This document shows, piece by piece, positions 26,480 through 29,400 of a stretch of 64,000 nucleotides of DNA. The translations under genes and the position numbers were made by a program. Source of the stretch: a virus; the IMG/VR virus record IMGVR_UViG_3300048578_000375; one strand, 5' to 3'. Position 1 is the stretch's first letter. Every line of letters begins with the position of its first letter. Below the pieces are notes generated by a model. It was not told the origin of the DNA. It saw only the letters and a list, made by a program, of their open reading frames with translations, and did not search any database.

Positions 26480-29400
26480 CTGCCGCCGCTCTCAAGTCCA
26501 CGCCCGTTCCCCGCACAGCCGCCGGTGAGCCGCCTTTGGGCCGCAATGCCGAATTCTTCACCGATGATCAGGGTGAGATCTTCGAGCACGACAATCCGCG
26601 CTATCGCTCGCCGTCGACCAAGGTCGGCATCCTCGAGCTGGACAATGGCGGTTGGCTTTGCCAGCCACCATCGTTCCATATCGGCCGGCCGCAGCATGCC
26701 ACGCGTGAAGCGGCGCTGCGCGCCGGGATCGCCGCACTGGTGCGGCGGGCGCGGAAGTACATACGCAATGGTGAAGGCGAAGGCACGCGCTGGGATGCAG
26801 GTTATGCGGGCCGCGTGATCGAATGGGCACTGAGTTTGAACCCGGGGCGCGGACGCGCGCCGGCTGCTCCCCGCGCGGAAGAGATCACCGATTCAATCGT
26901 CCGCGCGCTGTGTGAGGCCCGCCGCGCCCGCAAGGTCTATCCGGCCGGACACACCTTCTCCATGACCAACCCGATCATCAACGGGGAGATGGTCACCATG
27001 GGGACCTGCAGTTGCGGGAAGAGCTTCTCCTACAAATGGGGCTCCTATGAGCGGATGGACGCCGCGATCGAGGCGCACTGGCAGACGTTCGATCACCTGC
27101 CGGAGAAAGTCGACGGGCGAGGCAACCCGATCGCACCCGAGTCGGAATCCGCAGACCAGGCGGATAAGCTCAGCCGTCGGCGCGGCAAATCCGCGAAAGA
27201 ACGGCTGGCGAACGGCAAACGGGCCGCAGACAATCAGGTTTCTGACGGGGTTGCGCCTAGCTCGTCAGACGGGCCGGCACCTTCCGGCGATGCGGGGCCG
27301 CCTCCTGCTGATGCTGAAGGTGCTGGCTCACTTCCATCGACTTCCGACACCGGCTTGTCCGCCGAAGCTTCCGCCTCTCAGGGAACCGAGGCGGGAGGGC
27401 AGCCTGCGTCGGATCCCGCGCCGGTTCTTGCTTCGCTTTCCGGCGCGGGAGAAATTTCGCCTGCGCAAATTTGCGCGGGCTCTTCAATCCCTGAGCCTGC
27501 CGAGGTCATTGACCCGGGGAGCGGCATATCTGGAGGGCCGAAGCGCCCGGAGATGGATATGCCGCAATCCGGCGAGATCAAGGCGGGGGCGACCGCGAAG
27601 GCGAGCGCAAGCGCCTTGCGGTCTCCGGCTTTGCTTGCGCCGGGTGACCCGGCATCCGTTGAGGGGGTAAGCGGGGACGCTCGCCTACACGCACCGCCGG
27701 CGCTTCATTCCGACGATGACGATATCAACGTCGACTGGCCGTCCTATGACGCCTTCATCGAGGATAAGATCGTCACCGCGCCGCTGCGCGGGATCGAAGT
27801 GCCGCGCGATGCGCTGCATCCGTATCTGAAGCCGCATTGCAAGGACCTGGTGGTCTGGAGCCTGCGGCTCGGGTGCGCGGCGATCTTCGCGAGCTTCGGG
27901 TTGCATAAGACGGCGATGCAGCTCGAATGGTGCCGCCAGCTTGTCGGCCACACCGGCAGCCCGTCGCTCTGCGTGGTGCCGCTCGGCGTGCGACATGGCT
28001 TCATCAAGGAGGCACAAAACCTCGGCATGGACGTGCGCTTCGTCCGCACCACCGCGGAGTTCGACGATCTCTATTGCGAGGGCGTCCGCTACTTCCTGAC
28101 CAACTATGAATCGATCCGCGAGGGCAAGCTCGACCCCAATCTTTTCGTGGCCTGCAGCCTCGATGAGGCGAGCGTGCTGCGCTCCTATGGCTCGAAGACG
28201 TTCCAGGAGTTCCTGCCGCTGTTCTCCAAGGTCGAGTTCAAGCTGGTCGCGACCGCGACGCCATCGCCGAACCGCTACAAGGAGCTGATCCACTATTCCG
28301 GCTTCCTCGGCGTGATGGACACCGGGCTCGCGCTGACGCGGTTCTTCCAGCGCAATTCGGAGAAGGCCGGCGATCTCACGCTCTATCCCCACAAGGCAGA
28401 CGAGTTCTGGATGTGGGTGCATTCCTGGGCGGCGTTCCTGCAGAAGCCGTCCGAGCTCGGCTATAGCGACGACGGCTATGAGCTGCCGCCGCTCACGATC
28501 CGCTGGCACGAGGTGCCGGCGGACCACAGCAAGGCCGAGCCGGAGCGCGACGGGCAGGGCGTGATGTTCCGCGACATCGCCAAGAGCCTGTCCGACGCCG
28601 CGAAGTCACGTCGCGACAGCCTGCCGGCGCGGGTCGCCAAGATGCTGGCGATCGTCGCCGAGGATCCGGACGCGCATCGGCTGATCTGGCACGACCTCGA
28701 GGCCGAGCGCGAGGCGATCGAGGATGCGCTGCCGAGCGTCGAGTATGGTCATTGGGGTGAATTCCGCGATGGCAATCCCTATGCCCGCGCCCTCTATGAT
28801 CGCCATTATTCGGCACGAGCCGGTCGGGACAGCGATCAGATCCTTGGCCCCGGCGAAAAGCTTATCCTGCTGACACCGGAGAAGAAGGCGCTCTTCGGTT
28901 GGCGCAAGTTCAAGGATGATTCCGGTCAGCGCGGCGTCAATTGCGCGGTCTTCCGCAACGAGGGAGACGTTCAGTCCTCCGACCTGATCAAGGAGGCGAT
29001 GGCAGTCGCCTGGCTGCGCTGGCCCGGCGAGCGCTTCTATACGTTCGTCGACGCCGACGAGGTCGCCTCCGCAAATCCCGGATATTGCTTCCTAATGGCC
29101 GGCTGGCGCCGCTGTGGCAAGACGCAGGGCGGCCTTGATATCCTGGAGGCGCTGCCCGGTTGCGAGGTTCCCGACGTCGTGCCGCGCGTAGCATTGTCGA
29201 CCATCACCGGCTCGATGGACATCGACGCGCGAGAGCAGCGCCTGCACGACTTCGAGGAGGGGCGGACGAAGTATTTCGGCACCAAGCCGATCCTGTCGGG
29301 TTCCGGTTCGAATTTCCAGTACCACTGCCACAAGGCGATCTATCTGTCGCTGCCGGGCTATGGCTACAAGTTCAACGACTTCATCCAGTCGCTGTACCGG

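Follow-up and report, generated by a model that had tools for sequence, protein, structure and literature searches.

A predicted GNAT-fold domain nested in the Snf2-type motor of a phage helicase-methyltransferase protein

A giant phage protein and its nested module

The stretch of viral DNA analyzed here, which we call the window (64,000 nucleotides; IMG/VR record IMGVR_UViG_3300048578_000375), carries a giant open reading frame (ORF) that is open throughout positions 26476-30768, has no internal stops, and encodes a predicted motor ATPase, a predicted DNA methyltransferase and, nested within the motor, an additional module (Table 1). A first-pass annotation of this DNA had described that module as a self-contained unit at 28744-29160, lying between 'EDALPSV' and 'STITGSMD', splitting the C-terminal lobe of a helicase and resembling the GNAT domains of Mom-like DNA modifiers. 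Positions 28744-29160 encode residues 757-895 with exactly the motifs quoted in that description, and the insert is flanked by '...EAIEDALPSV' and 'STITGSMD...'. Alignment to insert-free homologues gives a clean indel, in which ~152 amino acids (aa) separate 'ALPxV' from '(V/L)(T/S)I.GS'. The insertion follows the motif-IV strand 'LIWHD' and its helix and precedes the strand 'STITGS', a position corresponding to a surface loop of lobe 2; the alignment and a model of the carrier both place it within the C-terminal (RecA2) lobe, as had been proposed.

We modeled the insert with AlphaFold2 and obtained a compact domain, with a mean predicted local distance difference test score (pLDDT) of 94.5 and a predicted template modeling score (pTM) of 0.88. 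The model shows the GNAT order of elements, b1-a1(-a2)-b2-b3-b4-a3-b5-a4-b6-b7, and a Foldseek search agrees with it, indicating that the insert has a GNAT fold, as the first-pass annotation had predicted. Because the insert has its own match to the protein family phrog_24928, its own homologues and a compact predicted domain, it is a separable module. A structure search of BFVD returned generic GNATs and no close structural relative. In the ESM Atlas, a shape search matched the insert model to unnamed viral clusters of its own family, and feature matches of 0.86-0.87 (guide value, 0.9) touched clusters containing Mom and 'GNAT-phage-like' families; we treat these as leads only.

Several other identities for the insert were set aside. 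Predicted structures of the Druantia protein DruA (PF14236) align to the insert model with a template modeling (TM) score of 0.75 over 127 residues, so that DruA appears to include a GNAT-like domain; this score is no closer than that of ordinary GNATs, and we do not claim DruA as kin. A marginal match to the Slingshot dual-specificity phosphatase in a profile search of PDB sequences (E 0.004) was ruled out, because the predicted fold is that of a GNAT and the insert has no C-x5-R motif. A reading as an intein or mobile element is likewise unsupported: the insert folds as a domain in frame with its carrier, and Pfam and PHROG scans matched it to neither intein nor endonuclease families.

The carrier matches phrog_16, 'DNA helicase', in three stretches (E 8e-107), and also PF01555. 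Using as our homologue set the 120 best matches to residues 430-1430, we found that superfamily 2 (SF2) motifs I, II, III and VI (GL(H/G)K(T/S), DEAS, TATPxPN and QxxxRxxRxxQ) are conserved in these proteins; within motif VI, Q971, R975 and Q981 are invariant and R978 is present in 119. The Walker A sequence GLHKT, which had been singled out as atypical, proves to be the norm for this family, since 75 of the 120 homologues have H as the middle residue and 45 have G, the K never varies, and the motif ends in T or S. An AlphaFold2 model of residues 430-1060 (pLDDT 84.9, pTM 0.82) has, as its top 50 Foldseek matches, exclusively Swi2/Snf2-family ATPases (E 6.5e-14 to 5e-11), with Rad5 first and the double-stranded DNA (dsDNA) translocases Chd1, ALC1, Mot1, CSB, RapA and Rad54 also among them. 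Further, PF00176 is precomputed on several homologues of the carrier. In its motifs and its two-lobed model, the carrier is thus a predicted Swi2/Snf2-type dsDNA translocase, a more exact description than the earlier term 'helicase'.

Across residues 1069-1394 the C-terminal domain matches PF01555 with a score of 41.5 bits, where the cut-off is 26.7. Its S(I/V)PF and DPF.G motifs are invariant in the 120 homologues, compared with the usual (D/N/S)PP(Y/F) of motif IV and FxGxG of motif I. We therefore regard it as a predicted N6/N4 DNA methyltransferase of the beta class with an unusual motif IV, in keeping with the methyltransferase first assigned to this polypeptide. The N-terminal 430-aa extension is missing from the ~990-aa homologues described below, and no Pfam or PHROG match was found before residue 424; residues ~215-420 are of low complexity and rich in Ala, Ser, Pro and Gly, and a Cys/His-containing stretch lies around residues 178-205.

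Table 1. Coordinates of the giant ORF, its domains and motifs, and selected neighboring genes in the window
Feature	Position	Strand	Basis
Giant ORF, 1430 aa: N-terminal extension, predicted Snf2-type ATPase with nested GNAT-fold domain, predicted N6/N4 DNA methyltransferase	26476..30768	+	ORF list, translation
N-terminal extension, residues 1-430	26476..27765	+	translation
Predicted Snf2-type ATPase lobe 1 and first strand and helix of lobe 2, residues 440-755	27793..28740	+	motifs, AlphaFold2, Foldseek
Walker A GLHKT, residues 475-479	27898-27912	+	
DEAS motif	28162-28173	+	
TATPSPN motif	residues 593-599	+	
Inserted module, residues 756-907: predicted GNAT-fold core (28744-29160) and ~12-aa linker	28741..29196	+	
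Rest of ATPase lobe 2, residues 908-1040	29197..29595	+	motif VI; model secondary structure
Motif VI, Q971-x3-R-x2-R-x2-Q981	29386-29418	+	
Predicted N6_N4 (beta-class) DNA methyltransferase domain	29680..30657	+	PF01555
Methyltransferase motif IV, variant S-I-P-F	29698-29709	+	
Methyltransferase motif I, DPFGG	30571-30585	+	
C5-cytosine DNA methyltransferase, 698 aa	24383..26479	+	PF00145 E 6e-27; phrog_116
MT-A70 methyltransferase with ParB-like N-terminal part	19660..21273	+	PF05063 E 8e-9; phrog_359, phrog_4715
Second Snf2-related helicase (phrog_62 type), without nested domain	34626..36377	+	phrog_62 E 2e-69; PF00176

The phrog_24928 family and the distribution of its nested form

The insert alone matches phrog_24928, a 157-position profile, with an E-value of 4e-27. 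At E<=1e-3 it matches 1498 proteins of 76-244 aa, which are ~60% identical among the matches listed, and a profile search of 1.84 billion representatives at the same threshold returned 1300 clusters at 50% identity. The family is almost entirely viral, and its members are mostly free-standing, basic phage proteins of ~150 aa; those from cultured phages, all free-standing, belong to Paenibacillus phage Lily, Salinibacter phages M8CR30-2 and M8CR30-4 and Micromonospora phage pMLP1. Precomputed Pfam domains are absent from all 120 of the listed homologues of the insert.

We compared residue conservation in 207 free-standing and 48 nested copies (insert numbering). H21, Y22, C67, R71, E73, S79, R97, T100 and C115 are each conserved in at least 96% of both forms, and a broader set (H21, Y22, R54, C67, R71, N72, E73, S78/S79, R97, T100 and C115) in 92-100%. 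In the model these residues fall at the end of a1, on b4, at the b4-a3 junction, on b5 and on a4, the elements that line the active-site cleft of GNATs. The sequences thus point to selection that acts alike on free-standing and nested copies, and because the same polar residues are conserved in both, they argue for an enzyme. The free-standing members are strongly basic, with a median isoelectric point (pI) of 9.66 and 99% of values above 8, as compared with 10.0 for Mom. Nested copies have a median pI of 8.29, and the insert studied here 6.9, a lowering that would be expected if the carrier supplies the affinity for DNA.

The domain occurs at the identical site in 48 of the 120 nearest homologues of the giant protein, the other 72 being insert-free, so that the search for relatives lacking the insert, suggested at the outset, was amply answered. 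The 48 nested-form proteins are mostly ~990 aa long, come from many phyla and are annotated simply as 'DNA methyltransferase'. The giant protein is 89-93% identical in its backbone to its nearest insert-free relative and 74-86% identical to the insert-bearing relative P0124; its insert, by contrast, is 86% identical to that of P0124 and 65-72% identical to the other nested inserts. The nested copies group together in a tree of the GNAT domain, whereas in a backbone tree with the insert masked, the giant protein and P0124 are placed separately within an insert-free, Bradyrhizobium-type clade. In a comparison of P0002 and P0124 with P0125 and P0176, insert-bearing proteins lie among insert-free backbones that are 89-94% identical, while the inserts are sisters.

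These relationships suggest either many separate, precise losses of the insert or its exchange as a cassette between alleles, with the conserved flanks serving homologous recombination; under loss and exchange alike it is an optional accessory. Among cultured phages, the closest counterparts are insert-free phrog_16 fusions of a Snf2 helicase and an N6_N4 methyltransferase, found in Pseudomonas phages phi297 and YMC11/07/P54, Rhizobium phage RR1-A and Paracoccus phage Pthi1. These share the backbone (60-64% identity before the insert), the motifs and the prophage or temperate-phage setting, and run straight from 'ALPxV' to 'VTI.GS'. The nested form itself is absent from all 50,697 cultured-phage genome records, in which homologues match the flanks only, and a megablast search of the giant gene against cultured phages gave no match. 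We found no description of the phrog_24928 family or of the nested architecture in the literature searched, which agrees with the first-pass annotation in treating the arrangement as undescribed; with 48 of 120 homologues sharing it, however, it is not a one-off. The architecture is real, recurrent and without a family annotation.

A second catalytic domain embedded in a Snf2 ATPase is also a feature of Rad5/HLTF-type proteins, and Rad5 is the top Foldseek match of the carrier. Those eukaryotic proteins hold a ubiquitin-ligase RING domain at a different insertion site and, unlike the giant protein, have no methylase.

The partners of phrog_24928 extend beyond this carrier. A metagenomic protein of 691 aa (P0252) is a different, phrog_62-type Snf2 helicase in which a domain of this GNAT family, at residues 172-308, is nested within lobe 1, in what looks like an independent event, and in another protein (P0367) the domain is fused to a resolvase-type helix-turn-helix (HTH). 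Around free-standing members, a DNA methyltransferase lies within ~5 kb in 7 of 13 contexts. Two of these show direct adjacency, one member (P0014) overlapping an N6_N4 methylase gene by 4 bases and Lily gp60 lying immediately upstream of Dam and Dcm, and one free-standing member shares its operon with genes for a DEAD helicase and an N6_N4 methylase. The recurrent partners of the family are limited to DNA methyltransferases, Snf2 translocases and an HTH domain. Genes of the PAPS_reduct family lie 1.3-2.6 kb downstream of free-standing members on two unrelated contigs (7766-8893 on L049 and 8034-9167 on L147), and may be another link to DNA modification.

Possible relationship to phage Mu Mom and proposed function

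To our knowledge, few enzymes write bulky groups onto DNA after replication, and for decades the only GNAT we know to have been shown to do so was Mom, whose tRNA-dependent chemistry was reportedly solved only in 2026. Mom acts on dsDNA post-replication, transferring glycine from Gly-tRNA(Gly) to the N6 of adenine, and is an obligate dimer; essential residues are R111, S124, D149 and R151, important ones H58 and Y59, and activity also requires the HTH-like insertion that separates b6 from b7 (residues 175-209; PMC13219725). Mom (PF25680; PDB 8BV8) is a GNAT-fold enzyme, and the insert shares that predicted fold. The first-pass annotation had gone further and likened the segment 'T(F/Y)xD...GY.F..AGW' to Mom itself. 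We aligned the insert family by hhalign to a broad Mom alignment, composed of Mom orthologues and eight distant Mom-like phage proteins, and recovered a collinear, structurally sensible pairing in which HYS21-23 faces Mom H58-Y59-S60, S79 faces S124, D103 (N or D across the family) faces D149 and G113 faces G156. The segment in question is included, with 'YTFVD' aligned to 'QSFAD' (D149) and 'G.CF..AGW..G' to 'G.VYQASNF..G'.

This Mom-type signature in register supports a DNA-directed function, as do the partners of the family, since the Snf2-methylases (n=48), P0252 and the HTH of P0367 all act on DNA. The methylase neighbors in 7 of 13 contexts and a basic charge like that of Mom point the same way. 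Further, the invariant motor and methylase motifs and the matches of the model to dsDNA translocases suggest an active carrier, and dsDNA is also what Mom acts on. We infer from these observations that the most likely role of the insert is that of a DNA-directed acyl or aminoacyl transferase: probably a catalytically active GNAT domain, nested in a Snf2-methylase, that modifies DNA. DNA hypermodification is the best-supported reading, and we hold it tentatively, at a probability of roughly 40%. As proposed, the Snf2-type motor would track along phage DNA and the methyltransferase would methylate exocyclic amines, while the GNAT domain would move an acyl or aminoacyl group from acyl-coenzyme A or, as in Mom, from a charged tRNA to a DNA base; the DNA would then bear a second mark that protects it from restriction by the host.

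A number of observations weigh against this proposal. No sequence method assigns the insert family to Mom or to a named GNAT family, searches of Pfam (E<=1), NCBIfam and PADLOC (E<=1 or E<=1e-3) all being empty, and it has no match at E<=1 to the Pfam Mom family (PF25680), to which Mu Mom itself scores 253 bits. The hhalign comparison has an E-value of 0.014 with a probability of just 3%, which is not significant; against Mu Mom alone, or close orthologues only, hhalign gave nothing usable, and searches of hidden Markov models against sequences in both directions gave E-values of at least 0.012 in tiny test sets. No conserved residue of the insert family corresponds to Mom R151, and the equivalent of R111 is ambiguous, being R54, N66/C67 or R71 depending on the alignment. 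The essential HTH-like insertion of Mom, 35 aa in length, is missing from the insert, in which a turn of 5 residues connects b6 (122-126) to b7 (132-136). Further, 6 of the 13 free-standing contexts have no nearby methylase, and methylases are common in phage early regions, and the count of 7 in 13 stands without a baseline. Finally, the insert is accessory, because backbones 89-93% identical do without it.

Additional differences set the two groups apart: Mom lacks the invariant C67 and C115 of the insert family, and it stands alone with Com, whereas the insert family is nested in or adjacent to motors and methylases. By sequence, then, the insert family appears to be a separate GNAT family and not a member of Mom, of which it may be a distant relative. 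The original observation is confirmed and its GNAT assignment is correct, and 'Mom-like' remains a reasonable yet unproven lead.

We considered whether the domain might instead be a protein N-acetyltransferase tethered to the translocase, acetylating host or phage proteins on the DNA (nucleoid proteins, restriction enzymes, RNA polymerase and even the carrier are examples) so as to blunt defense or redirect the host. This strikes us as rather unlikely. The acyl-CoA (coenzyme A) loop Q/R-x-x-G-x-G/A at b4-a3 reads R71-N-E-G74-x-x in the insert, followed by the conserved S78-S79; conservation is 97-100% at R71 but falls to 64-81% at G74, and the loop lacks its last G/A, so that the canonical loop is partly present and incomplete. 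The HYS and Ser signature is common with Mom and is no protein-acetyltransferase feature. Moreover, the free-standing members are strongly basic, and fused or neighboring partners are DNA enzymes, not protein-targeting modules.

A domain that is inert in the fusion, serving as a structural, dimerizing, cofactor-sensing or nucleic-acid-binding module that tunes the translocase-methylase, is in our estimation a poorer candidate still. The core dispenses with the insert in 72 of 120 homologues, some 89-93% identical in backbone, and the obligate dimerization of Mom (PMC13219725) means that the GNAT could be a dimerization handle; yet H21, Y22, C67, R71, E73, S79, R97 and C115 are conserved at 96% or more in nested as in free-standing copies, which would be unexpected for a scaffold.

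TmcA/NAT10 unites an ATP-driven nucleic-acid motor and a GNAT that produces N4-acetylcytidine in RNA; TmcA has its GNAT after the helicase module, not nested within it, and has no methylase. The giant protein is alike in joining a motor and a GNAT, here predicted to modify bases, in one polypeptide, and no sequence relationship between the two was detected. We judge it improbable that the insert acts on RNA or charged tRNA, by cytidine N4-acetylation as in TmcA/NAT10 or by aminoacyl-tRNA acetylation as in the TacT/AtaT toxins. TmcA does set a precedent for linking a helicase module with a GNAT (a reference cited in PMC13219725), TacT and AtaT are among the Foldseek matches of the insert, and a basic pI suits any nucleic acid, but the carrier is a predicted Snf2-type dsDNA translocase and DNA methyltransferase, TmcA differs in helicase class and domain order, and no antitoxin-like pairing was seen in 13 contexts.

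DNA hypermodification, the reading we prefer, can be extended to a broader and more doubtful proposal: that phrog_24928 constitutes a new class of DNA-hypermodifying phage enzymes, widespread and distantly akin to Mom, which would attach an acyl- or aminoacyl-derived group to a DNA base. The nested form would be carried along dsDNA by the Snf2 motor, so that one polypeptide would write two chemically different protective marks processively, and the insert would be an exchangeable cassette, gained or lost by phages through recombination between alleles. If true, a new base modification and its motor-coupled installation would be added to the anti-restriction repertoire of phages, with a bearing on restriction evasion, modification-aware sequencing and enzyme tools. 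At issue is a GNAT family without a name that comprises ~1300 clusters at 50% identity and has residues conserved as in enzymes. A ready-made control exists in natural alleles that carry or lack the insert and are otherwise 89-93% identical.

The phage and its gene neighborhood

The window is a circular sequence of 58,333 bp written past its own end. Positions 1-5667 are identical to 58334-64000 at all 5667 positions, so features there are counted twice. The sequence encodes a large terminase, portal, head protease, major head protein, tape measure, central tail fiber and integrase, as befits a temperate tailed phage; it has a G+C content of 60-68%, and no tRNA genes are encoded by the phage. 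The exact giant protein was also found on contigs of up to 392 kb, indicating that the element exists as a prophage, and the closest relatives with a name come from Bradyrhizobium, where they are annotated 'DNA methyltransferase'. By protein similarity the host is probably a Bradyrhizobium relative.

An 11-kb stretch of the phage holds three DNA methyltransferase genes, those for the MT-A70 and C5-cytosine enzymes and the giant ORF (Table 1). The stop of the C5 methylase gene overlaps the start of the giant ORF by 4 bases. The catalytic halves of the C5 methylase match residues ~5-186 and ~603-685, with ~400 aa of unassigned sequence between them, and in a relative (P0164) the helicase-methylase protein has a C5 methylase domain fused to it. 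Elsewhere in the phage, a 458-aa ORF at 10960-12336 on the minus strand matches the integrase family phrog_1, and its last ~35 residues match HNH endonuclease families.

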